Source: Nemertoderma westbladi (taxonomy: Eukaryota; Animalia; Xenacoelomorpha). Taken from it: a stretch of DNA of 61,056 bases. The stretch is taken from positions 1 to 61,056 of the forward strand of contig JAUCBJ010000159.1 in assembly GCA_032718475.1 (NCBI GenBank), written 5' to 3'. Below the pieces are notes generated by a model. It worked only from the letters and a program-made list of their open reading frames with translations. It was not told where the DNA came from and searched no databases. Of the stretch, positions 28,778-51,909 are shown piece after piece. The stretch's first letter is position 1. Each line of letters starts with the position of its first letter. Both the position numbers and the translations under genes were made by a program.

Positions 28778-29751
28778 CCGGTACAGTAGTATGGTATGTG
28801 TTGTGTAGGCCTATATCCATGGTACAGCAAATTTAAAAAATGTGTATGTCTTTTTATTTGGTTTTGTTGCATTTTATTATGTTCTAGAACATTGGTGATT
28901 GTTCTAGAACCTTAGTATTCATTTTTTCTGACATCTAGTAGTATTTTTTTCACTAGCTAGTATTTTTGAAAATAAAAAAAATAATATTTTATTTAGTGTT
29001 TTTTTAATATTGGAAAACATTCTAGAATCAATGTTTTCACATTTTTTTATAATTTCAAAAAATAATAGCTAGTTAAAAAAACGGCTATCCGTATGCCACA
29101 TGCGTATGTGTGTATATTCCTTAATCATTGTTACTATGGCTTCAATATTAGTTATAGAACACCATATAAAAGTTATTTAACAATTCTAGAATAAAATAAA
29201 AAATAAAATGATCTAGAACATATAGCTAATTATTTTTTAATTTTAAATTAGCTAGTAATTAAAAAAAAATCAGATTTCAACTTTTAACAATTTATTGCCA
29301 AATATTTCAACATTTTTATAGTTTCAAAAGATGCTCGCTCGTAAAAAAAAAACACTTGCTACCATAAATACAACATATCTACTTATGTTCTATAACACTT
29401 TCCAATAATAAAAATCGAAAAAATAAAAATTTAAATTTAGAAAATGGTCACACAAGCTACACCTATGTTATAAAAATACTAGCTACCTTAAAAATTGCTA
29501 GATACCTGAAACTATAACATTTATAACACTAAATTTAATACCAAATTTTTAAAAATTTTTTTTAAATACTACCGATAGTTATTTAGAAATTATAAATTAG
29601 CTAATAATACAAATTTTTTGAACATTTAATTGATTATTGATTCGAGTTTTTGTATTCAGTAGTAATTAGTTTACATTGCAATGTGAAATAGAAATACTGG
29701 CACGGGCGGAACTCTAGCCATATAAACTATTTTAGATTATTTTTTCGTTAG

Positions 29752-31163
29752 GTCGAGAATTCGATTACGATAAAGATCGAATTTGTAAAGTTCACTTCGA
29801 GCCGAAGGATTTTATGATGAACAGAAATTTGCAGTTTCGAAGTTCCAATCTCAAAAAGGAATCAATTCCATCAATATTTACATTGGTTGGGCCATTACCA
29901 TCCCCACTACGAAAGTCACCAACTAAACGAAAAGTTGATCCAACACTATACAACCTACTCGAAAATAGAAAATTAGTTGAAGAAGACAAATTGGAGTGGC
30001 AGTTGGGAAATATAAAGAAATGGATTGAAGACGAGGATGTTTTTAAGAATAGAGAGGTACATGCGTGTAGGTGTGATGTTGAAAGTGAAGATGGAATTAT
30101 GATTTATGAAATTTCCCCCGAAAATCTAAAACTGAATTACTTCCTTAAGATCTCAACGACGTACTTTATTGTTTCTCAAAATACCTCTAAAATACCCCTC
30201 GTTAATTTTACCTATTTACCACGTAACAAAAGTGGGTATAATAAAGTTCAGAAGAAAAGTGTTTTGCTTAGGCTAATGAATGAGGTCAAGTTTCATTCAT
30301 TGCCTAATTTTGACTCAGATTTCATGGAATTTCTAGACGAGTACCGCAATTATAAAAAGATAGGAATATACCCCAAGAATATCATTAGAAAGTGTCTTAT
30401 GCTACGTTATAAAAGCAGGAATGGATATAAAGAGCTCTTGAAGCTGATGCCGAACCTACCCAGCATTTCATTCTTTGAAAAGTTGACAAGAGGTGATGTA
30501 AAAGTTTATACACTTCTAAAGAGCATTGGTATGGATCAGAATGTTGTAATATACGCGGATGAAATTTACTTACAGAGAGAATCAATATTTAGTGCAGGAG
30601 GTATTATTGAATCACCAAAGACCCTGCTGGATATTATGGTAAGAGCTCTAAGTGGGGGAAATGGAATAATTGTCAAGTCAGTGCCATGTTACGATACATT
30701 AACTGGAGACATGTTGATAAAAGAATTCAAGGAAGTTGTGAAACATTTAAAAGAGGCCGAGTTTCAGCCACGAGTGTTTGTTACTGATGGCCTTTCAGTT
30801 AATGTCAATGCTTACTCAAAGATTATATATGAACCAGAGCTTTGTGATATAATTCCGTTGTTTGATTATAATCACCTCATGAAGAATACACGAAATAACT
30901 TATTTAACACCGGCATTTTTTATCCTCCTGAATTTAAGTGGAGTTATATGAATGACGTATTTCAAATAGGAGCAAATGCTAAAGTGTCGATGTCTGATGT
31001 TCGTATGGTGTATCAGATGGATACAGAGAGAATTAATTGTGATTCTTCAGTCAATCTGCGAAAAGCCCACAAGCTGACATATGCAACAATCAACGTTGGA
31101 AAGCGGAAGCAAAACACCCAGCTTATGCTCAACCTGTACCATGATAGTACTATCGATGCCCTC
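29752..31163 (+). pseudogene. THAP/P transposase exon 2, 5' part (cut by the LTR insertion)
   Basis: Acceptor TTTTTCGTTAG at 29751, phase-compatible with exon 1. Gives RICKVHF...LKKESIPSIF (THAP end), then YADE, VTDG, FDYNHLMKNTRNN and KQN motifs of P transposases. Confidence 0.9.
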
Positions 31164-32372
31164 TGTAAAAGCTTTTGTGGGATAACTGATTCGTTTGCCT
31201 TGTTGGCCAGTTCCCCCCCCAGTCGCTAGAATACTCTCAAAAGGGATCTATAGCTAAAAATAGTGCAAGTTACCAGCTTATTGGCTGATTTGCTGTACGC
31301 AGGCATCTGGGCTCTGTTTAATCGGCCAACAAGCCTAGGGAGGTTGCGTCATAGCCTTGTTTTTGTATCTCCCAATAGAATTTGAGTTAGCCTTGATTTT
31401 GACCTATCACAGAGCTACTGAACTGAAATTTTCCTATCTCACTGCTCTTTCTCTGTGTTGAACGGGAGCTTCGTGGAATAAGGGAGTTGGTATCCTCGTA
31501 TAGAGCAGTAGTCACGAGTTTTTCAAAGCCACGAAAGAACGGCTTTGTAGTGTTTTATGTTTTCTGCTTTTTAGCTCAACACTAGTAGGTTTAATTATAA
31601 GGACATATATCCTTTAACTGCAATTACGCATTTAACTCGCATTTGACGCACCTGACTGATTGTCTTAACTCAAAACAAACTGGCACGATTGATCTGTGAA
31701 TACTGCATACTGCTATTTGTTGTCGGTTATTCATTATATTGGTTGATGAATTATTATATTGGAATAACGAGAAATAACCCCGACACCCAATATTCTTGAT
31801 ATACCGAAGGTAAGAGAGAAAGGTTACCAATAACGATTGTGACTTATGTTAAAGTGGTTTGAAGTGAATCTAATGTTATTTGATAGACCCTACATGAGTC
31901 AGTCTGTGTTCCTTTTATATGTGACTAAAATCAGTGAAGATTGGCAGATTAGTGTGCAGTATTGTGCAGCATTGTGTACGAGTGAGTCTGTTAAAGAAGC
32001 ATTTCCTAAAGAATGCGCCATATATGTGAATTATAATTAAGCCATATCGTTGTGAGTAGTTTAAGTCATAACTCTGTTTATATAGATAAAGCGCCACGTC
32101 CTAAAGGAACTGTTAATATTCCCGAAGGTGAATAATATTGTCAGAGATTATATAATACTGTCAGTCGAATAATACATTAGGCTTACATAGCAATAAAATT
32201 AAACCGTCGAACCCAATCTCCCGGGAATATCCAGCGGGTGAATGGTCGCGCACAGATTGGTTTCGACTAGTGTAGTGAATCAAATACTTGTCATAGGCTA
32301 AAAAGCGATTTAATATCTAGAAGACATCTTAATTTGGCGGGTTAAACTGCCAAAGGTCTGAAAGCGCGAACA
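31164..32372 (+). repeat. 5' LTR (1209 bp)
   Basis: TGTAAAAGC...GCGCGAACA. By eye it differs from the 3' LTR only by one C in a homopolymer and T31619/A51151. Confidence 0.95.
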
Positions 32373-32383
32373 TTAAAGGATAT
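32373..32383 (+). promoter_or_regulatory. Putative primer-binding site, non-tRNA type (TTAAAGGATAT)
   Basis: Directly abuts the 5' LTR, lacks TGG, and is the exact complement of ATATCCTTTAA at 31607-31617 in the LTR. Confidence 0.55.
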
Positions 32384-32439
32384 TGCTTCTTTATTGCAGT
32401 AAGCAATAAAGTTGAAAGTACCGGTCAACCGGTAAACCT

Positions 32440-34500
32440 GAACCGGTACATCTGTAGGTCAGTAGGCCCAACTGCCAGAACCGGTACTGCCGTAGGTCCG
32501 TAGGTCCAACTGCCAGAACCGGTACTTCTGTAGGTCCGTAGGCCTAGCTGTCCTAACCGGTACTTCCGTATAAGTACATTAGTATTATTCGATTTGATTG
32601 TTGTATACCGGTAGGCTGTTTAAGGGATTAGGGATTGATCACCCCTTATTCCTTTATATGGTTTACTTATTTCTGTCAAGTTTTATTTGTTTGTAGGCCA
32701 GTATTGAACAGAAGGCGTGTAAGCCTGATCAGATTGTACAGACAATTTGTAGGCTGAGCTGTTGTCTGATTGCTGTTAAGTCTGAACGGATTGCAGTGTG
32801 TGTAGATCACCTGTCCGATTAAGTACGGTTAGGAAGTAGGGGCAGCGAATGCTGTAAGGTAAACCCCCAACTAAAGAATAAGTCGTACTACTGGGTTAGA
32901 ACGCATACTCCCTAATCATTTCGGAGTCTGCATGTCCTGTAGTTTATTTAGGCTTGAGAGTAGTCTGCCATCGTTGAGTCTGTACTTTGTTTGTGTAAGT
33001 CTGTACGGGTAGCGTATAATATTTATTTAAATAATTCGTAGGCTGGATAGTTGTCTGGCTGTTATTAGGTCTGAACGGATTGCAGTGTGTGTAGATCATT
33101 TGTCCGATTAAGTACGGTTAGGAAGTAGGGGCAGCGAACGCTGTAAGGTAAACCCCCAACTAAAGAATAAGTCGTACTACTGGGTTAGAACGCATACTCC
33201 CTAATCATTTCGGAGTCTGCATGTCCTGTAGTTTGTTTAGGCTTGATAGTAGTCTGTCAGTGTTCGGTCTGCATTTTGTTTGAGTAGTTTGTACGCGTAG
33301 CGTAATATTTATTATTCAGAGTTTATGCGATTATCCGCAACATTCATTCCCCAAGTTTGTTCCTACAGTAATTGTGTTTGTTATACATACCGCTATAGTT
33401 AAATTAACCCCGGTACTACACGGGCTGCTTGGCGTAGGTAAAGACTGGTGATTTTGTGCATCGGTCACTCCAGCAGATGCCGTGGTTCTTTTAGCTGTTC
33501 AAGTATATTTAACTACTGATTATCTGTTATACAAGTACTCGTACCTAATTTAGGGTTTAGTGTACAGTACTTTCCGAAGTAATTAGTGTAGACATTATAT
33601 TTGTGTTGTAAAGTGGTTGATAGGCACTTTCGATTAGCTCTATTAACTTCTAGGTAGGAACACTCCGTGATACATAACGTAGAACCTATAGCGATACGGC
33701 TATAGGTCGTCAGGCGGTGGTATTTTTCTATCTGGACAACGCAGTGTATTTACTACTACTTATTATTTCAAATACCGTAGTACCCTGTCCGTTGTAATAA
33801 CCAGTTTTCTGACCCTTTGTTAGGCTGGTTTGTAGACTTCTTGTAAAATTACCCTAAAAATTCGTATTTTGTGTTTTTTGTAAATTTTTGTGTTTATTTA
33901 GAGATTGTCATCTCACCCGAATTGTACGTAATTTGTAGTATTAAGTAACTTAGGTAAATTAGTATTATTTGTTTTAGTGTCCTATAAGTAACACTTCACT
34001 GAAAGCGCACCGCTTTGTGTAGTGATTACTCCCCAGAAATAATAACATTTATTTCAAACATTGACTAAACCCATTAAAACGGGTATATATATATTATAAA
34101 TCAAATCTAACGATTTATAAATAGTAGGCCTACCATACAACCATTAGGTCTTAATATCAGTTGGATTACTGCTCAAATAACGGTAGTAAAGTAAGTAAAG
34201 TAACCAAGTAACCCTAAAATACAGAAATTCAATTATTTAAAATAATTGACATACCGGTATTTACGATAGGCCTATTATCTTTATTTCTATAAATTTAGGC
34301 TGAAATTATACCGGTACTTTATAATTAATTCTAGTCCAGAATTATAATTATATATACTACAAAACTGTAAGCTGTATACCGGTATTCCCGATAGGCCTAT
34401 TATATATTTATATACATTTGTGCTAAAATTATACCGGTATTCTGTGATAAACCTAGTCTGTAATAATACTTATATATACTATAAGCATACCGGTATTTAA
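32440..34500. repeat. Repeats in the 2.26-kb leader: 38-bp x3.5 (32440-32570), 289-bp x2 (~32745-33315) and ATACCGGTA-containing units (34250-34500)
   Basis: GAACCGGTAC at 32440, 32478 and 32516; TCTGAACGGATTGCAG at 32781 and 33070. Confidence 0.85.
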
Positions 34501-34630: not shown

Positions 34631-37600
34631 ATGTCTGATACTAAGCAGAACCTGTCAGACAGTCTATTAGATGTAACTATCTGCGACTCAGATAGAGGTG
34701 TAGAACCCTCTAGTCGTAAGTTCAGTTCACCTCCCACTGTGAGGAAGGTCATCCCTCCAGTAGTAATAACAGAACCTAGGCTAGTCCAACATCGTAGGTC
34801 TATCATAGGCACTCGAGCTCAGGTCAAGCGGGACCAAGAAGCAGCGGAACAGCAACAACCCGCGAGTCAAGAACTTATTCCTCAGCGGCCCAGCAGCTCC
34901 AGTAGTGAGGATACTGTAGAGCTGACACCCGAGCGCGGAGCAGAGATGACGGATGCGGTTTATACGGATCCCCTTCTCATCCTTCCTGCAGCCGTACTCA
35001 CTAGGTTATTGATCGCGGTGGAAGAACACCAGATCGATTGGGCGAGAAGTCAACGGACAACTAGAGATAGTTACGCGGGATACACGAGTGAAGAACTGAA
35101 GTCCATTGTCGAGTCGCAATGGAACTTTCCCGGACCCGGACTCCCGTTTGATTTATCAGAAGCTGCCTGGGAAGACATACACCGGATGGGAGTAGCCAAG
35201 GAAACCATCGATCCAGCTGTATGGAAGAGGTCCGCAGCCGGATACGCACAGGGATTCTTCAGCTCTATGGAGCGAGTAGAAAGACAACTGTTTAAACAAC
35301 CTCAAGGACCTCAAGAGCAGGGACAGCTGCTTTATCAAGTTAGAGAAAGAGTTCTGCGAATTAGGCTAATCTTATCCGCCTTTGAGGAGGCTTCTAAAAG
35401 AAGACAAGACACTTCGTTGCAAGTTGCCGTAAAGACTTGGCTTCAAAGGGTGAGACGCCAGGTTCAAGGAGCAGCTCAGTGGAAAGCTCAGTTGGAGGAG
35501 CGCTCAACACATGGAGAATCGACGGACGCTACTTTTTCCCAAGTGGAAAGTGAAGCGACGGCAGAGAAACCGCATAAGAAGGATGCCATTGATATCTATC
35601 TGTCAGACTATCAGCGTTTTTTGGGAGATGAAGAGTTGAGGAGAAGGCTAGAGGGACTTAGCCCTAATAGTGAAGGAGCCAAACTTGTGTTGGATGCGAT
35701 TGATGTGGATAGGTTAGCGGCGAACCAAGCTAAATTCGATGAACAACTCCGCATCGCTAGAGAAAAGGAAGAACAAGTAAGGAAAAAACGTATAGAAGAT
35801 AGAAAGACAGCAGCAGCGGCAGTGGCAGCGGCAGAAGCGGAAAGAAAGGCAGCAGAGGCAGCGGCAGAGGCAAAAGCGGCAGCTGCAGCCGTAGAAGCGG
35901 AAAGGAAAGCGGCAGCGGCAGAGGCAAAAGCGGCAGCTGCAGCCGTAGAAGCGGAAAGGAAAGCGGCAGCGGCAGAAGCGGAAAGAAAGATAGCAGTGGC
36001 AGAAGCAGAACGGAGGGCATCTGAAGAGACAACCCAACTAGAGTTGGAAAATCTTCAAGAGAGGCAAGATAACTTTAATAAACAGTTAACAGCTAGTAAT
36101 ATGCAGATGATGAATCGATCTACTCCCAAACGACAAGGTTATACATCATCTGAGGAAGGCGATACCACCGACACTGAAGGCGGAGGAAATCGATCCCGCC
36201 TAAGCAGACGTAAAAGAACATTCCACCGTCAGAAATTGCCTGATTTGCCTCCAGCTGTTAGAAGGCAACTAAATAACACCAACTTAGAGAGTACAGAACC
36301 CACAGACCAAATAATTACAATAGAAAGACTCCCTACTATAGTAGATGAGCCTGAAATAAGTAGGCCTGTTCTTGAAATCACCCCTTCGGTAATAGATACA
36401 CCTGTGCTCCCTGAAGCTACCTATAAATTCCCTCTGCATAGCACTAAGCTACCTGTGCCCCGTAGAACTGCCCAGGAGACAGTTCAGGTCCTGGACCCCG
36501 AGCGAAATATTCCAAATTTGTCGCCCGTTGTCCCTCGTCTGCCCGCTACGACGTTGGCGGATCCCGTTTCGGCGGTTGATTGGGTAGACGAGAGACGGCG
36601 GGGGATGGATATTCTCCTAGGAGAGATGAAGGAGAATCGGATACGCTCTTCCCAACAGGTCCGAGAGTTGGAAGGGACTGTCCAACATTTAAAAGGAACA
36701 GTGAGGGAAAGTAAGTTAGAGTTGCAAGAAGTGCAGCAAAGTATCGCGTTAGAACGCGATAAATTAGTAAATTTACAAAAGGGTATACCACCACCCCCTG
36801 TAACAATGTGTCAACCCGTTAGGTCTGAAGTATCTCATGCGCAAGGTGTGGAGCCTACACGCATTTATACTGCTAGCGAAGTAGAAACTCCTATAGTGAA
36901 CCCTATTAAGGGTAATTATAGACCTGTTGATAATGATATTCCCTATAGAACTGATCATAATCCGAGAAATTTATATACCGATAATTCGATATTAAATAAC
37001 ACGATGGCCCAAGAAAGTTTTACGCGTCAAATGGCTAGAACCGAAGCCCGGCAAGCGGTAAAGGTTGGAGAGATCGTCAAGTTCAATGGAGATGAGATGA
37101 AATGGTTACCTTTTAATGAATATTACAAAGATAACATACAGAACTCTGTACTATCTAATGGAGAAAAACTTAGATACCTCATCGAGTGCTTGGAAGGATC
37201 TCCCAAGTTAATGGCGTTAAAGTTTATTGGACATCCAGACGGATTAAGACAAGTTTGGGATACACTAAACATCAGGTATGGTAATAGGAATAATATCGCT
37301 GGGTACTTGTATGCAAAGTTAGTAGCGCCCCGAAAGTTTATTAGTAGCGGAATTATCGAGTTTTCCGATGAGATCCAGGAGATCTGCAGACAATTAGATT
37401 GGCTAGGTAAGTCTCATGAGTATCAGAACACTATGGTTATTAGAGCAGTGGCTTCTACTTTACCTAAAGGTGGAGTAGGTACACGCTGGGATAAGAAAGT
37501 GTTATATATGATGGAACAACAACGGCGAGACCCTACCATGGCTGATCTCATGTCATTCCTAGATGGAGAAGTGAAATTACAGCTCCTGAAACTGTCCAGA

Positions 37601-40600
37601 GAGAAGACACCGGAAAGCAAGGTAAGTGAAAAACCCGTCTCTAGGAGAAAGGTAACACCAGTATGTTATACAGACGACGGTGAAAGCCAGACTTCTCAAG
37701 GAGAAGATAGCGGGAAAGACACGGATAGATCTTATTACGTGAATAAAATGCCTAAAGATCAGGTAAGTAAATTCAAGTCTCGAACAAATGACAGGAGGGA
37801 ACAGGTAAGAAAAACTCCTCCCACGTCTCCCAAGAGAATTCAGGTGAGAAAGCCCGAAGAAAAGGCAAGTGTACACAATGTGACTCAAAATAAGGTAAGT
37901 AACATCAAACCGAAATGTGCGCTGTGCGACGGGACCCACCATTTGAATAGGTGTGATGAATTTCTAAAGAAATCATTAACAGAGAGACGCGAAGTCATGT
38001 GGGATAAGCGGTTATGTTATAATTGCCTCAGACAAGGACACCAACGGCGAACCTGTTTCTCTGACATAAGGTGTGCAAAGTGTGGTGCGAAACATCATAT
38101 CTTGTTGCACGCTGAATTCGATCGAAATAGTCCGAATCAGGTAAGTGATTCCGAGCTACATGTCCAATTCAGTGATGTGAACGACACTGATCAATCTGAG
38201 ATGGAAGGATTCTATACAGACGAGTTCTCCGACGAAAACGAATCCTGTTACATGATAAATACCGCAGTGTATCGAGCACTCACATATGAAAAGGATCCAG
38301 ATAACGACTTTACTCTAACTACTTCTGAGCGACAACCATCTTGGAAAGAGCCATCTTCCAATGTAGGGATCCGAGAGTTTCCTGTGGTGCAAGTAAGGGT
38401 TCACGGACCTAAGAGGAGTTATGTAGTGAACGCCCTCCTGGACTCCGGCAGCACAGGAACATTCATCGATAAAGAGTTAGCCGAAGATATATTTGCTGGA
38501 CAACCCAAGTTCCAAACTAAGCTCAACATGTCAGGCATTATGCAAGTTTGGAAATCTACAATAACACCTGATTATTATGTAGGAGCGTTGTCCACCCCCC
38601 AAGACGAACTAGGAGAACACAGCATAAGGTCAGTGAAAATGGTGGCTATAAAGAACTTCGCTACTACTCAAGCAGACCTTTATAATTGGGACGAGGATGA
38701 GAGCATCCAACATCTTAACATACCTCGATTCCAGACTGAATATCCTGGAGTGCAAATACTCATCGGCCAAAACGCGCATGAGGCGCTGGAGACGTTAGAG
38801 AAACGGCCTGCTCAACCGCAGCCCCTACAGACCTATGCGGTGAGAACTAGAGTAGGTTGGTACTTTACTGGCCCTTCCCGTAGAACACTCCGAGAAAGAC
38901 TACCGCCGGAGAGCGTATGCCAGGTGAGTGAATGGGAAGATGATACCAGTGAGGGAGACAACTCAACTGAGGGAATTCCATACTCCTCAGATAATGACGA
39001 CGTTCACCAGCTTTTTGATGAGGAGAATACCATCGATCTCCTTAAGGAAAACGAGGCTTGGCAAAACCAAGTAAACTTATGTCAACTTCTCTATCCATCT
39101 GAACGAGAAGCTTATAACGACGAGTTAAATGACGTCATTGAGCGTTGTAATGCCAAGACTCGAGATGAACATGCTGTACGATTCTTTACGCAAGAGGCGG
39201 TAGAGCCCAATTCCTACGATAAAGCCTTGTCGGTGGAAGAGGAAAGGGCCAAGCAGATCCAAGAGACGACTACACGTTTCATCAAAGATCAAGGTAGGTA
39301 TGAAGTCGGTTTACCTTTTCGCAAGAGAGAACCGAAGTTCATCAATAACAGACCCCTGGCGGAAAAAAGAATCGCGCAACTCCATCGACGCCTTACAGCT
39401 AATTCTTCAGCTAAAGCAATGTATCAAACACAGCTGGAAAAATTTATTAGTAAGGGATACGCGGAGAGGGTACCGGAAGAAACACCTGTGACTGAAAGAA
39501 CGTATTATTTAACTCACCATTACGTTCCTAAACCCGGTAAACCAAATGAAGTGAGAGTAGTGTTTGATGGCTCCGCTCTTTACATGGGTCAATCCCTTAA
39601 CTCTGAATTGTTACCCGGACCCAACTTGCTTCAATCTTTGTTGGGAATTCTTTTAAGATTGAGACAATATTCGATTGCTTTCGCCTCCGATATAGAAGGC
39701 ATGTTCTTACAAGTCAAGGTGTTAGATAGGGATCGAGATAGTCTACGATTTCTGTGGTGGCCCGAAGGAGACCTCAACCAGAAACCGGTGGAGTACTGGA
39801 TGACCATCCAGGCCTTTGGGATAATCTCAAGCCCTTCCAACGCCTGTTCGGTAGTGCGTACTACTGCAGAGGACAACAGAGAGGCCTTCTCTAAGGAAGT
39901 GATCGACAACATCAAGAGAGACATATACATGGACGACAATCTGAAGTCCCTTCCATCAGTTGAGGAAGCCATTGAGGTCGCTAAGGGAACGGTAGAGTGC
40001 TTAAAAAGAGGTGGGTTTCGATTAACCAAATTCACCAGCAACTCCCGTGAGTTTCTGGAGTCGATCCCTGCGGAAGATCGCGGAGCGAAAGATCTCGATT
40101 TGATCAAAGATGATCTGCCAGAAACCAAGACACTCGGCTTGAAATGGGACACAGAGAGAGATATCCTGTTTTTCCAACTAAAACAGCGAGATAATCCTGT
40201 TCGAACCAAACGGATTTGCTTAAGTATACTGAGCACTTATTTCGATCCATTGGGATTTATTAGCCCAGTTATATTGATTGCTCGTAGTTTGGTACAACAA
40301 ATGTGGCTTGAAAACCACTCATGGGACGATCCACTTAAGGGGGAATTATTGAAGCAGTGGATGAAATGGGAAGATTCTCTGCCAGATATCGAGGATTTTA
40401 TAATTTCCCGTTCATATTTTGGTCATGTTCTCCCTACGTATTCCTATCAACTCCATGTGTTTGGAGACGCCAGCGATATGGGAATCGGTATAGTAGCCTA
40501 CCTAAGAGTGGAAACTCCGGATGGAATCAAAGTCGCCTTGGTTACTTCTAAGGCATTAATCAACAACAAGTTGAAAGTTCCTCGAGCGGAGTTAAAGGCG

Positions 40601-42811
40601 GCTCTATACGCTATAGCCATCGGCCGGAATGTAACTGAACAGATTGACTATACATTAGAGAAAACTGTCTATTGGACCGACGCTTTACTCGTGTTAGAGT
40701 ATATAACCAATGAAGTCTGTCAGTTCAGCGTCTTCGTTACCAACAGGGTAGCCATCATACTTAGTCGCACGACGATGGACCAATGGAGACATTGCCCCGG
40801 AACGATTAACCCAGCAGACATCGCTTCCCGGGGAGCGACTCCAAAGGAATTGGTAAATACTCCCGAATGGTTAGGAGGACCCGACTTTCTCTACAGAGAA
40901 GAAGAAGAATGGCCTCCCCATCTCACAACAGCAGAGATCAGACAGGCCAAGGGAGCGGAGAAAGTTAAACCCAAAACTCGAGCGAGTAAATCGAAGTTGT
41001 TTAAACCTGCGGTTGATCTATCTGTATTATTTACTTCCGGAGAGGATGCTTTGGATCAGAAACCCACCGCCACGACGAAAGAAGTCTTGGAAATCCGTGA
41101 CAAGGATTGGAAATCTAGAATACCAGATATCGCGCAAGGACTCTCACCTCTCTTGCAGAGAGCGATACGTCACTACAGTTCCTGGAATCGACTCTGTAAA
41201 GCTGTCACCTATTTAAAACGATGTTTTCATCATCGTTACTCCGGGACAAAGCCCAATAGTGATGATGCTCCATCAACATCTGCACGAGTCCATGTTGTTA
41301 AAGATCTTCCACAATACAAGGTATCCGACAGGTTTCTAAAGGAGAAGATCAGCTACCAGGAGCATGATGAAACCAACAAACAGATGCTGAGACTCCTACA
41401 ATGCTATGAGGATTCCGATAAGTATTTCCTGTTGTTAAGAAATCCGCAGATGCGCTTAAGGGATCGCTTCTCTAGTACCATGATAGATGGGTTAATACGT
41501 GTTGGAGGTCGGCTCACCAACGCCCCGTTATCCTTTGACACTAAATTTCCCATACTCATTAGAAATCTTGATATACAAATCAAGATAATTGTGGATGTTC
41601 ATAGCAAACTGTATCATGCTGGTAGAGAACGAGTTCTGAGCGAAATTCGAACTCGCTACTATTTTTATAAACCTCGTAGGGCTCTGAACCAAGTTCTTAG
41701 GAATTGTATACCCTGTAGGAAAGCATTCAGTAGGCCTTTGACACAGCGAGAGGCAGAATTACCTAGGGAAACAGTAAGCTTCTATGAACCACCCTTTACT
41801 AATACCGGTGTGGATTTATTTGGCCCTATTGAAGTATATCGTGCCCGGACTATAGTCAAGAGATGGTGTGTCATCTTCGTTTGTATGACTTGTAGAGCTA
41901 TCCACCTCGATATGGTAAACGATCTCTCCACCAACAGCTTCGTGTTGAGTTTACGACGACAGATCGCTCGCTTCGGAACCAGTAACACGATGAGATCGGA
42001 TAAGGGAACGAACTTCATTGGCGCCAACAACGAAATTCAAGCTTACGTAAAGGACTGGAACAAAAGACAGGTGGACGATCAGCTAAGGATAACAGCGTCT
42101 AGCTGGACCTTCAACGCCGCCGACGCCCCTTGGTGGGGAGGAAGTTGGGAGAGATTGATTAGGAGCGTGAAGACTGCGTTCCATTTTATTGTGCCCTGTC
42201 GCGCTTATCTCACCGACGAACTATTGCGGACGTTAATGGAGGAAATCGCCGCCTATCTCAACGAAAGACCGCTTATGCCAGTCTCTTCAAATCCTGATTC
42301 CCTGGAAGCGCTAACACCCGCGCACTTTCTACTGAAGAAGCCCGTAGCCATGCTCCCACGATCAGAGATCACCGACGGAGACGAGTACTGCCGTCGAACC
42401 TGGCAACTTATGCAGTTGCTATCCCGTCGTTTCGCTGACCATTTCGAGAAACATTACCTGCCCACTCTACAACTTCGAACTAAGTGGTTTGCGCAGCAAG
42501 AAAACGTCAGCGCTGGAAACATGGTGCTTATTGTGGACCCCGATCTCCCACGTAAGCGATGGCAAACGGGACGTATCATCGAGACTTATATCTCGAGCGA
42601 TGGTTTGGTGCGATCAGTAGAGCTCGTCGTCATGCGGCGGAACTTTAAGAAACCAGGGATAGTCTTTGAGACTCAACAGCTCAATCGCCCAGTGGGACGT
42701 TTATGTTTACTGGAAAGAGACAGAGAGCTCTCCGGAAACTATGGAAGGCAAGAAACTCTTCCCACGACCACTTCCCTAATCCAACCGACATCTAGGGACT
42801 CCCCAACTTAA
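34631..42811 (+). CDS. BEL/Pao Gag-Pol polyprotein (2726 aa, intact)
   Basis: Capsid-like KFNGD..W..F; three knuckles (CALCDGTHHLNRC, CYNCLRQGHQRRTC, CAKCGAKHHILLH); protease LLDSGS; RT DIEGMFLQV and YMDD; Pao RNase H FGDAS..PRAEL..WTDA; integrase HHCC, VDLFGP, SDKGTNF, WERLIRSVK. Confidence 0.97.
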   Translation: MSDTKQNLSDSLLDVTICDSDRGVEPSSRKFSSPPTVRKVIPPVVITEPRLVQHRRSIIGTRAQVKRDQEAAEQQQPASQELIPQRPSSSSSEDTVELTPERGAEMTDAVYTDPLLILPAAVLTRLLIAVEEHQIDWARSQRTTRDSYAGYTSEELKSIVESQWNFPGPGLPFDLSEAAWEDIHRMGVAKETIDPAVWKRSAAGYAQGFFSSMERVERQLFKQPQGPQEQGQLLYQVRERVLRIRLILSAFEEASKRRQDTSLQVAVKTWLQRVRRQVQGAAQWKAQLEERSTHGESTDATFSQVESEATAEKPHKKDAIDIYLSDYQRFLGDEELRRRLEGLSPNSEGAKLVLDAIDVDRLAANQAKFDEQLRIAREKEEQVRKKRIEDRKTAAAAVAAAEAERKAAEAAAEAKAAAAAVEAERKAAAAEAKAAAAAVEAERKAAAAEAERKIAVAEAERRASEETTQLELENLQERQDNFNKQLTASNMQMMNRSTPKRQGYTSSEEGDTTDTEGGGNRSRLSRRKRTFHRQKLPDLPPAVRRQLNNTNLESTEPTDQIITIERLPTIVDEPEISRPVLEITPSVIDTPVLPEATYKFPLHSTKLPVPRRTAQETVQVLDPERNIPNLSPVVPRLPATTLADPVSAVDWVDERRRGMDILLGEMKENRIRSSQQVRELEGTVQHLKGTVRESKLELQEVQQSIALERDKLVNLQKGIPPPPVTMCQPVRSEVSHAQGVEPTRIYTASEVETPIVNPIKGNYRPVDNDIPYRTDHNPRNLYTDNSILNNTMAQESFTRQMARTEARQAVKVGEIVKFNGDEMKWLPFNEYYKDNIQNSVLSNGEKLRYLIECLEGSPKLMALKFIGHPDGLRQVWDTLNIRYGNRNNIAGYLYAKLVAPRKFISSGIIEFSDEIQEICRQLDWLGKSHEYQNTMVIRAVASTLPKGGVGTRWDKKVLYMMEQQRRDPTMADLMSFLDGEVKLQLLKLSREKTPESKVSEKPVSRRKVTPVCYTDDGESQTSQGEDSGKDTDRSYYVNKMPKDQVSKFKSRTNDRREQVRKTPPTSPKRIQVRKPEEKASVHNVTQNKVSNIKPKCALCDGTHHLNRCDEFLKKSLTERREVMWDKRLCYNCLRQGHQRRTCFSDIRCAKCGAKHHILLHAEFDRNSPNQVSDSELHVQFSDVNDTDQSEMEGFYTDEFSDENESCYMINTAVYRALTYEKDPDNDFTLTTSERQPSWKEPSSNVGIREFPVVQVRVHGPKRSYVVNALLDSGSTGTFIDKELAEDIFAGQPKFQTKLNMSGIMQVWKSTITPDYYVGALSTPQDELGEHSIRSVKMVAIKNFATTQADLYNWDEDESIQHLNIPRFQTEYPGVQILIGQNAHEALETLEKRPAQPQPLQTYAVRTRVGWYFTGPSRRTLRERLPPESVCQVSEWEDDTSEGDNSTEGIPYSSDNDDVHQLFDEENTIDLLKENEAWQNQVNLCQLLYPSEREAYNDELNDVIERCNAKTRDEHAVRFFTQEAVEPNSYDKALSVEEERAKQIQETTTRFIKDQGRYEVGLPFRKREPKFINNRPLAEKRIAQLHRRLTANSSAKAMYQTQLEKFISKGYAERVPEETPVTERTYYLTHHYVPKPGKPNEVRVVFDGSALYMGQSLNSELLPGPNLLQSLLGILLRLRQYSIAFASDIEGMFLQVKVLDRDRDSLRFLWWPEGDLNQKPVEYWMTIQAFGIISSPSNACSVVRTTAEDNREAFSKEVIDNIKRDIYMDDNLKSLPSVEEAIEVAKGTVECLKRGGFRLTKFTSNSREFLESIPAEDRGAKDLDLIKDDLPETKTLGLKWDTERDILFFQLKQRDNPVRTKRICLSILSTYFDPLGFISPVILIARSLVQQMWLENHSWDDPLKGELLKQWMKWEDSLPDIEDFIISRSYFGHVLPTYSYQLHVFGDASDMGIGIVAYLRVETPDGIKVALVTSKALINNKLKVPRAELKAALYAIAIGRNVTEQIDYTLEKTVYWTDALLVLEYITNEVCQFSVFVTNRVAIILSRTTMDQWRHCPGTINPADIASRGATPKELVNTPEWLGGPDFLYREEEEWPPHLTTAEIRQAKGAEKVKPKTRASKSKLFKPAVDLSVLFTSGEDALDQKPTATTKEVLEIRDKDWKSRIPDIAQGLSPLLQRAIRHYSSWNRLCKAVTYLKRCFHHRYSGTKPNSDDAPSTSARVHVVKDLPQYKVSDRFLKEKISYQEHDETNKQMLRLLQCYEDSDKYFLLLRNPQMRLRDRFSSTMIDGLIRVGGRLTNAPLSFDTKFPILIRNLDIQIKIIVDVHSKLYHAGRERVLSEIRTRYYFYKPRRALNQVLRNCIPCRKAFSRPLTQREAELPRETVSFYEPPFTNTGVDLFGPIEVYRARTIVKRWCVIFVCMTCRAIHLDMVNDLSTNSFVLSLRRQIARFGTSNTMRSDKGTNFIGANNEIQAYVKDWNKRQVDDQLRITASSWTFNAADAPWWGGSWERLIRSVKTAFHFIVPCRAYLTDELLRTLMEEIAAYLNERPLMPVSSNPDSLEALTPAHFLLKKPVAMLPRSEITDGDEYCRRTWQLMQLLSRRFADHFEKHYLPTLQLRTKWFAQQENVSAGNMVLIVDPDLPRKRWQTGRIIETYISSDGLVRSVELVVMRRNFKKPGIVFETQQLNRPVGRLCLLERDRELSGNYGRQETLPTTTSLIQPTSRDSPT

Positions 42812-42939
42812 TATCGTTCGGAGTGGGCGTGTGACTCTATTATTTTATATTATTTTATTATTTTTTACATTTATGTATGTATTACTATGTAATTTTATTA
42901 TAATCGTTTTATTTAATTTAGTAGAATATTATTTAGCGA

Positions 42940-45558
42940 TTATTTTGTAGAATAGTGCAATATATTCGTGTTTATTACGTAAATAACTTGTCTTAATCCG
43001 TCTGGATGTCCAATAAACTTTAACGCCATTAACTTGGGAGATCCTTCCAAGCACTCGATGAGGTATCTCAGTTTTTCTCCATTAGATAGTACAGAGTTCT
43101 GTATGTTATCTTTGTAATATTCATTAAAAGGTAACCATTTCATCTCATCTCCATTGAACTTGACGATCTCTCCAACCTTTACCGCTTGCCGGGCTTCGGT
43201 TCTAGCCATTTGACGCGTAAAACTTTCTTGGGCCATTGTGCTATTTAATATCGAGTTATCGGTATATAAATTTCTCGGATTATGATCCGGTCTATAGGGA
43301 ATATCACTATCAACAGGTCTATAATTACCCTTAATAGGGTTCACTATAGGAGTTTCTACTTCGCTAGCAGTATAGATGCGTGTAGGCTCCACACCTTGCG
43401 CATGAGATACTTCAGACCTAACGGGTTGACACATTGTTACAGAGGGTGGTGGTATACCCTTTTGGGTGTTTACTAATTTATCGCGTTCAAGCGCGATACT
43501 TTGCTGCACTTCTTGCAACTCTAGCCTACTTTCCCTCACTGTTCCCTTTAAATGTTGGACAGTCCCTTCCAACTCTCGGACCTGTTGGGAGGAGCGTATC
43601 TGATTCTCCTTCATCTCTCCAAGGAGAATATCCATCCCCCGCCGTCTCTCGTCTACCCAATCAACCGCCGAAACGGGATCCGCCAACGTCGTAGCGGGCA
43701 GACAAGGGACAACGGGCGACAAATTCGGAATATTTCGCTCGGGGTCCAGGACCTGAACTGTCTCTCGGGCAGTTCTACGGGGCACAAGTAGCTTAGTGCT
43801 ATGTAGAGGGAACTTATAGGTAGTCTCAGGGAGCACAGGTATGTCTATCACCGAAGGGGTGATTTCAAGAACAGGCCTAATTATTTCAGGCTCATCTACT
43901 ATAGTAGGGAGTCTTTCTATTTTAATTATTGGGTCTGTGGGCTCTGTACTACCCAAGTTGGTGCTATTTAGTTGCCTTCTAACAGCTGGAGGCAAATCAG
44001 GCAATTTCTGACGGTGGAATGTTCTTTTACGTCTACTTGGACGAGATCTATTTCCCTTGCCTTCAGTATCGGTGGTATCGCCTTCCTCAGATGATGTATA
44101 CCCCTGTCTCTTGGGAGTAGATCGACTCATCATCTGCATATTGCTCGCTGTTAACTGTTTATTGAAGTTGTCCTGCTTTTCTTGAAGAATTTCCAACTCT
44201 AGTTGGGTTGCCTCTTCAGATGCCCTCCGTTCTGCTTCTACCACTGCCTCTGCTGTTGCCAGTGCCGCCTTTCTTTCTGCTTCGGCCGCTGCCTCTGCCG
44301 CTGCCTCTGCCGCTTTTGCCTTGGCCGCTGCCGCCTTTCTTTCTGCTTCTGCAGCTGCCACTGCTGCTGCTACTGCCGCTGCCTTTCTGTCTTCTATACG
44401 TTTTTTCTTTACTTGTTCTTCCTGTACCTTAACGACGCGGAGTTGTTCATCGAATTTAGCTTGATTAGCCGCTAACCTATCCACGTCGATGGCGTCAAGC
44501 ACACGCTGTGCTCCTTCACTATTAGGGCTAAGTCCCTCTAGTCTTCTCCGCAACTCTTCATCACCTACAAAACGCTGATAGTCTGACAGATAGATATCAA
44601 TGGCATCCTTCTTATGCGGTTTCTCTGCCGTCGCCTCACTTTCCACTTGGGAAAAAGTAGCGTCTGTTGATTCTCCATGGGTTGATCGCTCCTCTAGCTG
44701 AGCTTTCCACTGAGCAGTTCCTCGAACCTGGAGATTCACTCTTTGAAACCAAGTCTTTACGGCAACTTGCAACGACGTGTCTTGCCTTCTTTTAGAAGCC
44801 TCCTCAAAGGCGGATAAGATTAGCCTAATCCGCAGAACTCTTTCTCTAACTTGATAAAGCAGCGATCCCTGCTCTTGAGGTCCTTGAGGTTGTTGAAAAA
44901 GTTGCTTTTCTATTCGCTCCATAGAGCTGAAGAATCCCTGTGCGTATCCGGCTGCGGACCTCTTCCATACAGCTGGATCGATGGTTTCCTTGGCTACTCC
45001 CATCCGGTGTATGTCTTCCCAGGCAGCTTCTGATAAATCAAACGGGAGTCCGGGTCCGGGGAAGTTCCATTGCGACTCGACAATAGACTTCAGTTCTTCA
45101 CTAGTGTATCCCGCGTAGTTATCTCTAGTTGACCGTTGACTTCTCGCCCAATCAATCTGGTGTTCTTCCACCGCGATCAATAACCCAGCGAGCACGGCTG
45201 CAGGAAGGATGAGAAGGGGATCCGTATAAACCGCATCCGTCATCTCTGCTCCGCTCTCGGGTGTCAGCTCTACAGTATCCTCACTACTGGAGCTGCTGGG
45301 CCGCTGAGGAATAAGTTCTTGACTAGCGGGTTGTTGCTGTTCCGCTGCCTTTTGGTCCCGCTTGACCTGAGCTCGAGTGCCTATGATAGACCTACGATGT
45401 TGGACCAGCCTAGGTTCTGTTATTACTACTGGAGGGATGACTTTCCTCACAGTGGGAGGTGAACTGGATTTACGACCAGACAGTGGTACGTCTCTATCTG
45501 AGTCGCAGATAGTTACATCTAATAAACTGTCTGACAGGTTCTGCTTAGTATCAGACAT
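42940..45558 (-). CDS. Antisense truncated Gag paralog (858 aa homologous to the Gag N-terminus + 14-aa new tail)
   Basis: Collinear with residues 1-875 of the Gag-Pol, with many substitutions but no stop or frameshift. Homology ends at 42985 (HPDGLRQV|IYVINTNILHYSTK*). Confidence 0.85.
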   Translation of the reverse strand: MSDTKQNLSDSLLDVTICDSDRDVPLSGRKSSSPPTVRKVIPPVVITEPRLVQHRRSIIGTRAQVKRDQKAAEQQQPASQELIPQRPSSSSSEDTVELTPESGAEMTDAVYTDPLLILPAAVLAGLLIAVEEHQIDWARSQRSTRDNYAGYTSEELKSIVESQWNFPGPGLPFDLSEAAWEDIHRMGVAKETIDPAVWKRSAAGYAQGFFSSMERIEKQLFQQPQGPQEQGSLLYQVRERVLRIRLILSAFEEASKRRQDTSLQVAVKTWFQRVNLQVRGTAQWKAQLEERSTHGESTDATFSQVESEATAEKPHKKDAIDIYLSDYQRFVGDEELRRRLEGLSPNSEGAQRVLDAIDVDRLAANQAKFDEQLRVVKVQEEQVKKKRIEDRKAAAVAAAVAAAEAERKAAAAKAKAAEAAAEAAAEAERKAALATAEAVVEAERRASEEATQLELEILQEKQDNFNKQLTASNMQMMSRSTPKRQGYTSSEEGDTTDTEGKGNRSRPSRRKRTFHRQKLPDLPPAVRRQLNSTNLGSTEPTDPIIKIERLPTIVDEPEIIRPVLEITPSVIDIPVLPETTYKFPLHSTKLLVPRRTARETVQVLDPERNIPNLSPVVPCLPATTLADPVSAVDWVDERRRGMDILLGEMKENQIRSSQQVRELEGTVQHLKGTVRESRLELQEVQQSIALERDKLVNTQKGIPPPSVTMCQPVRSEVSHAQGVEPTRIYTASEVETPIVNPIKGNYRPVDSDIPYRPDHNPRNLYTDNSILNSTMAQESFTRQMARTEARQAVKVGEIVKFNGDEMKWLPFNEYYKDNIQNSVLSNGEKLRYLIECLEGSPKLMALKFIGHPDGLRQVIYVINTNILHYSTK

Positions 45559-47842
45559 GACTATGTATACCGTTGAATGTCTACTGCTGTATTACAGTCT
45601 GAGTAAGTCTAGTAACTCAATATTACCTACTAGCCTAGTAATTAATTACCGGTACTGCTACTCAGTGTAGCGTGATATATATAATATATTAGAATACCGG
45701 TATACTTATAGTATATATAACTATATAAGTATTATTACAGACTAGGTTTATCACAGAATACCGGTATAGTTTTAGCACAAATATATATAAATATATAATA
45801 GGCCTATCTGAATACCGGTATACAGCTTACAGTTTGTAGGATATATAATTCTGAAATAGAATTAATTACAAGTACCGGTATAATTTCAACCTAGATTTAT
45901 AGAAATAAAGATAATAGGCCTATCGTAAATACCGGTATGCAGTTTACACTTATAGTGTATATATATAAGTATAATTACAAACTAGAATTAATTACAAGTA
46001 CCGGTATAATTTCAGCCGAAATTTATAGAAATAAAGATAATAGGCCTATCGTAAATACCGGTATATCAATTATTTCAAATAATTGAATTTCTGATACTTT
46101 AGGGTTACTTGGTTACTTTACTTACTTTATTACCGTTATTTGAGCAGTAATCCAACTGATATTGAGGCCTAATGGTTGTATGGTAGGCCTACGATTTATA
46201 AATCGTTAGATTTGATTTATAATATATATATACCCGTTTTAATGGGTTTTGTCAATGTTTGAAATAAATGTTATTATTTCTGGGGAGTAATCACTACACA
46301 AAGCGGTGCGCTTTCAGTGAAGTGTTACGTACAGGACACTAAAACAAATAATACTAATTTACCTAAGTTACTTAATACTACAAATTACTTACAATTCGGG
46401 TGAGATTACAATCTCTAAATAAACATAAAATCTTACAAAAACACAAATACGAATTTTTTAGGGTAATTTTACAAGAAGTCTACAAACCAGCCTAACAAAG
46501 GGTTAGAAATCTGATTATTACAGCGGACAGGGTACTACGGTATTTGAAATAATAAGTAGTAGTAAATACACTGCGTTGTCTAGATAGGAAAATGCCACCG
46601 CCTGACGACCTATAGCCGTATCGCTATAGGTTCTACGTTATGTATCACGGAGTGTTCCTACCTAGAAGTTAATAGAGCTAATCGAATGTGCCTATCAACC
46701 ACTTTACAACACAAATATAATGCCTACAATAATTACTTCGGAAAGCACCGTACACTAAACCCTAAATTAGGTACGAGTACTTGTATAACAAATAATCAGT
46801 AGTTAAATATACTTGAACAGCTAAAAGAACCACGGCATCTGCTGGAGTGACCGATGCACAAAATCACCAGTCTTTACCTACGCCAAGCAGCCCGTGTAGT
46901 ACCGAGGTTAATTTAACTATAACGGTATGTATAACAAACACAATTACTGTAGGAACAAACTTGGGGACTTGAATGTTGCGAATAATCGCATAAACTCTGA
47001 ATAATAAATATTACGCTACGCGTACAAACTACTCAAACAAAATACAGACCGAACACTGACAGACTACTATCAAGCCTAAACAAACCACGGTATATGCAGA
47101 CTCCGAAATGATTAGGGAGTATGCGCTCTAACCCAGTAGTGCGACTTATTCTTTAGTTGGGGTTTACCTTACAGCATTCGCTGCCCTTACTGCCTAATCG
47201 TACTTAATCGGACAGATGATCTACACACGCGGCAATCCGTTCAGACTTAATAACAGCCAGACAACTATCCAGCCTACAAATTATTTAAATAAAATTATAC
47301 GCTACCTGTACAGACTTACACAAACAGAGTACAGACTAAACGATGGCAGACTACTCTCAAGCCTAAATAAACTACAGGACATGCAGACTCCGAAATGATT
47401 AGGGAGTATGCGCTCTAACCCAGTAGTGCGACTTATTCTTTAGTTGGGGGGTTTACCTTACAGCGTTGCTGCCCCTACTTCCTAACCGTACTTAATCGGA
47501 CAAGTGCTCTACACACACTGTAATCCGTTCAGACTTAACAGCAATCAGACAACAGCTCAGCCTACAAATTGTCTATACAATCTGATGAGGTTTACACGCC
47601 TTCTGTTCAATACTGGCCTACAAACAAATAAAACTTGACAGAAATAAGTAAAAATCTCAATAAAAAACCAGGGCTGCAGTCCCTGATTAATTATTAAGGC
47701 CTACTGGTATATAATAATCAAAATCGAATAATACTGCTGTAGGTACCGGTCCGGATGATCAGGCAGTCAGGCCTACTGGTTACCGGTCGACCGGTACTTT
47801 CGACTTTATTGCTTACTGCAATAAAGAAGCTATATCCTTTAA

Positions 47843-49085
47843 TGTTCGCGCTTTCAGACCTTTGGCAGTTTAACCCGCCAAATTAGAATGTCTTCTAGAT
47901 AATAAATCGCTTTTTAGTCTATGACAAGTATTTGATTCACTACACTAGTCGAAACCAATCCGTGCGCGACCATTCACCCGCTGGATATTCCCGGGAGATT
48001 GGGTTCGACGGTTTAATTTTTATTGCTATGTAAGCCTAATTTATTATTCGACTGACAGTAATATATAATCTCTGACAATATTATTTACCTTCGGGAATAT
48101 TAACAGTTCCTTTAGGACGTGGCGCTTTATCTATATAAACAGAGTTATGACTTAAACTACTCACAACGATATGGCTTAATTATAATTCACATATATGGCG
48201 CATTCTTTAGGAATTGCTTCTTTAACAGACTCACTCATACACAATGCTGCACAATACTGCACACTAATCTGACAATCTTCACTGATTTTAGTCACATATA
48301 AAAGGAACACAGGCTGACTCATGTAGGGTCTATCAAATAACATTAGATTCACTTCAAACCACTTTAACATAAGTCACAATCGTTTATCTGTAACCCTTCT
48401 CTCTTACCTTCGGTATATCAAGAACATTGGGTTTCGGGGTTGTTTATCGTTATTCCAAATATAATAATTCATCAACCATATTATGAAGAACTGACGGTAA
48501 ATAGCAGTATAAAACAACAACTGAACACTGATTGTTACGAGTTTGCAATGTTTCAGCAGTCAGCATGTATGATCAGTCAGCAGTCATCAGGTATGTTAAA
48601 TTGCAGTTAAAGGATATATGCCCTTTATAATTAAACCTACTAGTGTACGACTAAAAAGCAGTACAGCACAAAATACTTCTAAGCCGTTCTTTCTTTGGCT
48701 CAAGACTGAATGAAAACACTGCACATAGGCATTGCGTCATTTCTCGGAAATTTTCTGTACAAGGAGCCACAAAAACGCTCTCATTGGCTGACTGAACTGA
48801 GAGACGCCGTAGAACAAAGGAAATCAACACGTATGAATGTCAGCTGTTAACCGTAGTCATAGTAACTACTGTTCAAGAGTAGCTATCACCCCTTTGCGTC
48901 ACGAATTGCCATAGAATCACAAAATATGCCTTTCACAGTACACATACGGAGGAAATAGGTCTTAGATCCTCTAAAAACACCGATACAGCAATAATACGGT
49001 CTCTTACACTTATTAAATCAACTACAGAGTATTTTAATGTAAAAGATAATAAAAATAACGGGGCAATTCAGCAAAGGCTTTTACA
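47843..49085 (-). repeat. Internal inverted LTR variant (1243 bp)
   Basis: Minus strand starts TGTAAAAGCCTTTG (49085) and ends GCGCGAACA (47843). The 3' two-thirds is similar to the outer LTRs; the 5' third is diverged. Confidence 0.88.
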
Positions 49086-49153
49086 CCTAGGAGCTACAGC
49101 CCTCCTCGTAAAGTGGCTCGCCCCAAAGAGAAAAGGACTCTTGCTAGCCTTAA

Positions 49154-50577: not shown

Positions 50578-50696
50578 TTAAGAAACTGCGTAAACGCCGT
50601 CCGCGCAAGAAAGACTAACTGTTTAGAGTATTTTTATATTTTAGAAACTGTGATTTTGTATATTTTATAGACTTAAATCCCATTTTCTGGGAGCGG

Positions 50697-51904
50697 TGTA
50701 AAAGCTTTTGTGGGATAACTGATTCGTTTGCCTTGTTGGCCAGTTCCCCCCCAGTCGCTAGAATACTCTCAAAAGGGATCTATAGCTAAAAATAGTGCAA
50801 GTTACCAGCTTATTGGCTGATTTGCTGTACGCAGGCATCTGGGCTCTGTTTAATCGGCCAACAAGCCTAGGGAGGTTGCGTCATAGCCTTGTTTTTGTAT
50901 CTCCCAATAGAATTTGAGTTAGCCTTGATTTTGACCTATCACAGAGCTACTGAACTGAAATTTTCCTATCTCACTGCTCTTTCTCTGTGTTGAACGGGAG
51001 CTTCGTGGAATAAGGGAGTTGGTATCCTCGTATAGAGCAGTAGTCACGAGTTTTTCAAAGCCACGAAAGAACGGCTTTGTAGTGTTTTATGTTTTCTGCT
51101 TTTTAGCTCAACACTAGTAGGTTTAATTATAAGGACATATATCCTTTAACAGCAATTACGCATTTAACTCGCATTTGACGCACCTGACTGATTGTCTTAA
51201 CTCAAAACAAACTGGCACGATTGATCTGTGAATACTGCATACTGCTATTTGTTGTCGGTTATTCATTATATTGGTTGATGAATTATTATATTGGAATAAC
51301 GAGAAATAACCCCGACACCCAATATTCTTGATATACCGAAGGTAAGAGAGAAAGGTTACCAATAACGATTGTGACTTATGTTAAAGTGGTTTGAAGTGAA
51401 TCTAATGTTATTTGATAGACCCTACATGAGTCAGTCTGTGTTCCTTTTATATGTGACTAAAATCAGTGAAGATTGGCAGATTAGTGTGCAGTATTGTGCA
51501 GCATTGTGTACGAGTGAGTCTGTTAAAGAAGCATTTCCTAAAGAATGCGCCATATATGTGAATTATAATTAAGCCATATCGTTGTGAGTAGTTTAAGTCA
51601 TAACTCTGTTTATATAGATAAAGCGCCACGTCCTAAAGGAACTGTTAATATTCCCGAAGGTGAATAATATTGTCAGAGATTATATAATACTGTCAGTCGA
51701 ATAATACATTAGGCTTACATAGCAATAAAATTAAACCGTCGAACCCAATCTCCCGGGAATATCCAGCGGGTGAATGGTCGCGCACAGATTGGTTTCGACT
51801 AGTGTAGTGAATCAAATACTTGTCATAGGCTAAAAAGCGATTTAATATCTAGAAGACATCTTAATTTGGCGGGTTAAACTGCCAAAGGTCTGAAAGCGCG
51901 AACA
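50697..51904 (+). repeat. 3' LTR (1208 bp)
   Basis: Direct repeat of 31164-32372, preceded by purine-rich GGGAGCGG and followed by the TSD CCCTC. Confidence 0.95.
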
Positions 51905-51909
51905 CCCTC

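Follow-up and report, generated by a model that had tools for sequence, protein, structure and literature searches.

Self-priming of reverse transcription is established for the retrotransposon Tf1, in which the mRNA's initial 11 bases act as primer after a cut by RNase H (accessible parts of PMC7175516 and PMC4600332), and it has been predicted for Tcn1 and for the TAR group of copia elements (accessible part of PMC6317226). For the Belpaoviridae, the ICTV describes an 18-nt primer-binding site (PBS) at which host tRNA-Arg or tRNA-Gly acts as primer (PMC8742986). The searchable literature, outside which lie subscription journals, Repbase Reports, and GyDB, yielded no report of self-priming or of a splice-built primer in BEL/Pao elements. 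The Caenorhabditis elegans element Cer7 may have an element-encoded tRNA primer, a point on which our literature look-up gave no confirmation. The term "PBS" is absent from the accessible main text of three BEL/Pao surveys (PMC554778, PMC3118150, and PMC2774666), PMC3601003 states that Bel/Pao LTRs were left out of its models, and the accessible parts of PMC12451622, PMC13524379, and PMC8672886 hold nothing further on BEL/Pao priming.

Here we describe an element in a 61,056-nt stretch of DNA (the window) that, like Tf1, Tf2, and Tj1, the Tf1/sushi elements, and Tcn1 as these are portrayed in the accessible sources, has no tRNA site and carries an LTR-adjacent PBS that is the complement of 11 nt in the RNA of its own LTR. 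The Tf1 group belongs to Ty3/gypsy, whereas Pol of the window element is of the BEL/Pao type and not chromovirus related; by analogy, the element likely works like Tf1 without being a member. TAR, Houba, and Osr-1, which are Ty1/copia elements, are alike in that self-priming was predicted from sequence alone, but they are plant copia elements, and an intron-built primer is not mentioned in the accessible part of PMC6317226. The likeness to the Belpaoviridae lies in the domain set and its order, the LTRs, and the 5-bp target duplication; in contrast to the ICTV description (PMC8742986), the window lineage lacks the 18-nt tRNA PBS. Our main reading, to which we assign a probability of roughly 0.55, is that in this BEL/Pao lineage the PBS pairs with the element's own LTR and that the element's RNA likely serves as its own primer, through a segment that is probably internal and not the first bases. 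Compared with Tf1, the primer would thus likely be internal, placed at a predicted splice junction in most relatives, and accompanied by a second short helix.

Results

Architecture and class of the element

The composite element is about 20.7 kb long, and its outer LTRs (31164-32372 and 50697-51904), both TG...CA, are flanked by CCCTC. Its main features are as follows.

31159..31163, + strand: target-site duplication CCCTC, second copy at 51905-51909
31164..32372, + strand: 5' LTR, TG...CA, 1209 nt
34631..42811, + strand: single gag-pol open reading frame (ORF) with DUF1759, Peptidase_A17, Integrase_H2C2, and DUF5641
42940..45591, - strand: truncated gag of a sister subfamily, inverted, 805 of 893 aligned columns identical
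47843..49085, - strand: the inverted copy's LTR, with a candidate primer at 48607-48618
50689..50696, + strand: purine-rich tract 5' of the 3' LTR, likely the polypurine tract (PPT)
50697..51904, + strand: 3' LTR, copy of the primer motif at 51139-51149

The ORF runs from an ATG at 34631 to a stop at 42811. All four of its domains score above their Pfam cut-offs, and LLDSG and YMDD motifs lie between the LTRs in the order expected for Pao-type gag-pol (PR-RT-RH-IN). The presence of these four domains in one ORF makes this a BEL/Pao element, as the first-pass annotation had it, and the LTRs and the target-site duplication agree with this. Since membership rests on Pol, loss of the tRNA site marks a variant lineage.

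The element is young, and its outer LTRs are 99.8% identical. They differ by one substitution (31619), which had been noted before, and at 31213, where a run of C contains a 1-nt indel that the first-pass annotation missed. We considered the substitution as a mark of the priming site and rejected it: in reverse transcription both LTRs derive from one minus-strand LTR, so the position is uninformative on priming.

The primer-binding site and its complement

The sequence that abuts the 5' LTR, TTAAAGGATAT (32373-32383), is the exact reverse complement of 31607-31617, just as the first-pass annotation had stated, and the inverted copy keeps this relationship over 12 nt (47831-47842 against 48607-48618). 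In public contigs of the family, most copies carry an A at 32384, which extends the pairing to 12 pairs. TGG is absent from the first 13 nt past either LTR end, outer or inverted, and the 18-nt PBS for a host tRNA 3' end, which must begin with TGG, is not found there. The arrangement, a PBS complementary to about 11 nt of the own LTR without a tRNA site, is that of Tf1/sushi elements. Exact LTR complements of at least 11 nt occur at 4 of the 10,498 positions of the internal region, which puts the chance of one at the LTR-adjacent position at about 4e-4. The features concerned are given below.

32373..32383, + strand: PBS, without TGG, abutting the LTR
31607..31617, + strand: candidate primer, complementary to the PBS without mismatch; where a copy has A at 32384, 31606 makes a 12th pair
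47831..47842, - strand: PBS of the inverted copy, 12 nt
31577..31622, + strand: near-invariant island with the candidate primer, 43/46 identical between the two window copies
31597..31603, + strand: predicted distal helix arm (RNAduplex), pairing with 32388-32394 past a short internal loop and overlapping TTATAA
31623..31700, + strand: hypervariable stretch at the 3' side of the primer, 47/78 identity, many contig continuations

The motif is contiguous in all three LTRs of the window, so that the complement is not split by a splice site here, and no intron-type break within it was seen among the loose ends listed for the public contigs. ARAGORN found no tRNA within the window, and nothing in Rfam exceeded a family cut-off between 31100 and 52000.

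The motif lies in a conserved block with diverged borders, as had been noted: identity between the two window copies is 43/46 in the island, 47/78 just downstream, and 36/44 just upstream. Likewise, in public family contigs from four runs, 31577-31620 shows no substitution at a frequency of 1% or more, the only variant being a 1-nt insertion after 31598, and over the next few bases after 31622 the summed contig depth drops by a factor of more than 100, with many different continuations beginning there. The bases TTATAA(A)G at 31595-31601 form a possible TATA box, from which a start would fall past the motif; this counts against our main reading, but the predicted distal helix can account for the TATA-like bases at 31597-31603. 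A hairpin at 32388-32411, directly 3' of the PBS, competes with the distal helix.

Two further complements were seen. An 11-nt match between leader and LTR (32582-32592 against 32165-32175) starts exactly at the first putative splice acceptor described below, and its leader side is retained in the inverted copy; it may be due to chance. The window's putative splice junction also matches 32381-32389 over 9 nt, but in the outer copy only; this was dropped as support because most copies carry an A at 32384.

Self-complementarity and covariation among relatives

Scans of metagenome and genome collections by Pol alignment gave 100 loci. A readable LTR end allowed 31 of these to be scored, 11 of them TGG and 20 non-TGG; 17 more were scanned as a held-out set, and the remaining 52, among them the duplicates L029 and L076, were left unscored. 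The labels TGG and non-TGG were set by eye, as were about 14-15 of the LTR ends (13 non-TGG ends and those of the TGG controls L057 and L042). The same test was applied throughout, with an offset of 0 to 7 nt and a complement that was either contiguous or formed across any predicted junction. Together with the two window copies, the 20 relatives make up 22 non-TGG elements; these fall into some 14 family groups and thus do not amount to 22 independent cases.

Pairing of at least 10 nt with the own LTR was found in 20/22 non-TGG elements versus 0/11 TGG elements, and pairing of at least 11 nt in 18/22 of the former. When leaders and LTRs were swapped between families (n = 444), 11 nt was never reached and 10 nt was reached four times. 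Where the LTR end was fixed by a second LTR (or, in the inverted copy, by homology), at least 11 nt paired in 8/9 cases. The 20 different 11-mers all begin 0 to 5 nt past the LTR end. When positions were scanned without bias in 11 of the hand-set cases, the assumed site came out on top, alone or in a tie, in 10. The weaker cases are L086, with one mismatch, and L037, with 9 nt. In the held-out set, the junction match of L002, 11 nt long and 2 nt past the LTR end, ranks first among 445 positions. L047 is a possible case (10 nt); the other 15 loci, most of which have a partial LTR and one of which (L097) contains a run of N, gave no match of at least 10 nt right after a CA. A scan of viral_contigs returned one weak locus.

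Covariation between PBS and LTR among relatives, a check proposed with the original observation, is strong: in columns 1 to 11, 237 of 242 cells are Watson-Crick pairs with 20 distinct 11-mers, compared with 2/22 in column 12, so that the pairing ends sharply at base 12. PBS bases past the junction pair with exon 1 in 82/84 cells and with the intron end in 25/84, and compensatory changes were found in 6/8 sister pairs. On a tree from a quick search under a mixture model, which covered 40 of 72 rows, a single change suffices between the TGG and the self-complementary type. The window element falls on the self-complementary side with an SH-aLRT value of 97 as the deepest and longest branch; with a branch length of 1.67 and at most 42% identity its placement is unsure, and FastTree left it unresolved. 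L002, from a neighboring group that was unlabelled on the tree, subsequently proved self-complementary. Judged by these sequences, self-complementarity of the PBS is a trait of the lineage and not a peculiarity of the window element. The named relatives that fall in the self-complementary clade are those of sea urchin, zebrafish, and mussel.

Two side observations concern the sample. L010 carries PBS-like sequence in several tandem repeats within its leader (1060-1190), and L079-L100 are animal-type BEL/Pao elements in records labelled bacterial, most of which look like host contamination of assembled bins.

Predicted introns and geometry in relatives

For 16 of the 20 relatives, the best complement results when exons are joined across a predicted GT-AG intron in the LTR; it is contiguous in the other 4 and in both window copies. 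L086, counted among the 16, ties at 8 nt and pairs at 10/11 positions. In these junction cases exon 1 contributes only 3 to 8 nt of the 11-mer. In L043, one LTR piece has its acceptor exactly where the other LTR carries the joined form, a coincidence that suggests real splicing. TATA-like boxes were found in 8/20 relatives at 49 to 243 nt upstream of the motif or donor, and none at 25 to 35 nt. A poly(A) signal lies 0 to 58 nt past the primer end in 12/20.

Upstream of the 11-mer a second short helix is predicted, with a mean of -6.3 kcal/mol versus -4.2 in swaps (3 of 20,000 permutations). In L006, L082, L088, L091, and L093, a bulge of some 3 nt often comes after the 11-bp core, and then a helix of roughly 4-5 bp. 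This shape is reminiscent of a nuclease recognition structure and might fix the length of 11 nt. Since the second helix needs RNA 5' of the 11-mer, a strict rule of the first 11 nt fits poorly. Taken together, the junction-spanning 11-mers, the TATA spacing, and the second helix suggest that the primer is likely an internal segment.

A putative intron and a predicted mask in the window

The window element differs from its relatives in that 574 nt separate the motif from the AATAAA downstream and the putative intron leaves the motif uncut. The place of this intron before the poly(A) signal is nonetheless that of the relatives' introns.

31810..32190, + strand: putative LTR intron, donor AAG|GTAAGA (predicted; the best donor in both copies), acceptor 32164 or 32190
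32019..32058, + strand: predicted mask (anti-primer) within the putative intron, pairing with 31574-31610
32192..32197, + strand: likely poly(A) signal AATAAA

Between the two copies the putative intron is identical at 346/355 positions, which is unusual for an intron. The wider block that includes it (31810-32425 against 48407-47790) is about 97% identical, above the value for gag, beside an unrelated U3; this pattern would fit either a mosaic LTR or a strong structural constraint. The public family data are contigs, and absence from them of a joint of 31809 to 32165 or 32191 is not evidence.

The pairing of island and mask is predicted at -27.5 kcal/mol in the outer copy and -24.0 in the inverted one, and the strength of its 34-nt core was matched by 0/2,674 outside windows and 2/150 shuffles. 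The mask was recognized post hoc and comes without compensatory change, and some subfamilies, seen as loose ends of contigs, differ at 32031-32040; for these reasons we treat it as a lead only.

Folding predictions depend on the start of the RNA. In unspliced RNA starting at or before 31576, the primer is found in the mask helix (P = 0.83) and hardly with the PBS (P = 0.00 to 0.01). Starts at 31590-31606 give a probability of primer-PBS pairing of 0.86 to 0.94 in the outer copy, or 0.86 to 0.98 with the equivalents in the inverted copy included; for unspliced RNA from 31606 it is 0.92 (outer) and 0.95 (inverted). Removal of the intron raises this probability from 0.01 to 0.92 for a start at 31576 in the outer copy; in the inverted copy it goes from 0.00-0.33 up to 0.27-0.98. 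Starts at 31517-31545 in the outer copy leave the primer helix at 0.00, spliced or not. A spliced template would cost the LTR its intron, and we therefore favor a scheme in which a short unspliced 5' end would prime in cis and the mask would hide the copy in the 3' LTR.

Discussion

The PBS of the window element and its relatives, 0 to 5 nt past the LTR, pairs over 11 nt with a segment of the LTR and covaries with it across families. In most relatives this segment exists as such only after joining of exons, which would require removal of an LTR intron; in the window it is contiguous. We infer that the RNA starts some 10 nt or more upstream of 31607 and that its fold-back forms the core of 11 to 12 bp and the short second helix. 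In Tf1-type systems, according to the accessible sources, the primer must be released by cutting. Here, likewise, cleavage immediately 3' of 31617, with the element's RNase H as the probable enzyme, would release a 3' end from which U5 is copied. Copying of the primer during plus-strand synthesis may rewrite the PBS in each cycle, which would account for the exact covariation. Finally, RNA that contains the whole island, such as the copy in the 3' LTR, is predicted to hide the primer in a helix with 32019-32058, and this copy would not compete if so masked.

Possibly, the lineage couples its primer to splicing in two ways, by exon joining in most members and by an intron-locked helix here, from which splicing or a short 5' end would release the primer in this deep-branching family; we hold this joint reading only tentatively. 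In contrast, we are rather confident that the primer derives from the element in some form, be it an internal segment, the first bases of the mRNA, or a segment supplied by a 3' LTR or a second transcript.

Among the alternatives, the closest is the strict Tf1 geometry put forward in the first-pass annotation, with a start at 31606-31607, the first 11 to 12 nt as primer, and a mask that only hides the 3' LTR copy. The folding of unspliced RNA from 31606 into the primer helix is consistent with it, as are the length of 11, which equals that in Tf1 (accessible part of PMC7175516), and the extent of the invariant island, which spans about 30 nt on the upstream side of the motif and 5 nt on its downstream side. 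An intron-less LTR joint is likewise not seen in the family contigs, whose silence is not evidence. For the window family a start at 31606-31607 may, by these folds, apply. However, there is no TATA box at -30, the distal helix at 31597-31603, common to relatives, needs RNA upstream of 31606, and the 11-mer of 16 relatives extends beyond exon 1 across a predicted intron. What stands of the Tf1-like proposal is the lack of a tRNA-type site and the self-complementarity, and it was likely right on where the primer comes from; its use of the first 11 or so nt of the mRNA is not supported, as the junctions, the TATA spacing, and the second helix in relatives speak against it, and we consider the strict geometry unlikely.

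Distinctly unlikely, in our view, is that the pairing serves as a regulatory RNA structure (in translation, packaging, or a dimer switch) and that something else primes, for instance a fragment of a host tRNA or another small RNA. Long-range leader pairings are common in retroelements, which speaks for such a function. Half-molecule tRNA primers, moreover, are described for copia lineages (accessible part of PMC6317226). It is difficult to see, however, why 20 different 11-mers would then match only their own LTR, start 0 to 5 nt past it, and stop at 11 bp, and relatives of the TGG type lack such pairing.

Alternatively, the island may be a core promoter, with a TATA box at 31595 and a start near 31625. 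The motif would then lie in U3, and the primer would come from 3' LTR RNA or from an LTR transcript in trans, possibly unmasked by splicing. The inverted copy and a share of the contigs indeed read TATAAAG (through the insertion after 31598), divergence starts near where such a start would fall, and removal of the putative intron raises the predicted primer-PBS pairing in both copies. But TATAAG, a weak box, is the commoner form in runs X1 and X3, and the TATA-like bases are accounted for by the distal helix. In addition, a cut of the 3' LTR in U3 would remove the copy of R needed for strand transfer unless a second RNA supplied it. We consider this origin of the primer very improbable. A chance match in AT-rich sequence, to which the three other internal-region positions that reach 11 nt might point, can practically be dismissed given the fixed position at the LTR end, the conservation in both copies, the generality in the lineage, the swaps, the covariation, and held-out L002.

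If the primer is indeed the element's own RNA, this would likely be a new variant, as judged from sequence, in a superfamily thought to be tRNA primed. BEL/Pao would become the third LTR superfamily with self-priming, through a widespread lineage that has named relatives in zebrafish, sea urchin, and mussel. Such a lineage would escape silencing by tRNA fragments directed at the PBS and would be overlooked by tools for which a tRNA PBS is a requirement. Formation of the primer at a splice junction would link reverse transcription to host splicing, a link that we did not find in print, and the length of 11 nt in common with Tf1 may point to a general rule of reverse transcriptases.

The surroundings of the priming region deserve brief mention. 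Between the end of the ORF and the 3' LTR (42812-50696) lie an inverted partial sister element, comprising LTR, leader, and the 5' half of gag at about 91% identity, and a MITE. Given the 99.8% identity of the outer LTRs, either the arrival of these pieces was very recent or the composite moved as a single RNA; in the latter case, a 19.5-kb RNA with an inverted repeat of about 5 kb would be a possible source of double-stranded RNA. The sequence at 49150-50581 is a noncoding element bounded by TTAA, with perfect terminal inverted repeats of 21 nt and palindromic internal repeats, which we take to be piggyBac-like from its TTAA/CCC ends. The composite interrupts an ORF (29736-31163 and 51910-52440) whose frame is kept on both sides; it has a weak THAP match (E = 0.0024, below the cut-off) and presumably resembles a P-element-type transposase. 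An 82-nt piece at 60769-60850 is 91% like the LTR start and then diverges, as would the LTR of another subfamily. Large tandem and segmental repeats occupy 1-22000 and 54763-60181, among them arrays with a period of about 160 nt, near-identical duplications of 2.5 kb and 2.7 kb, and a 4.5-kb duplicate.
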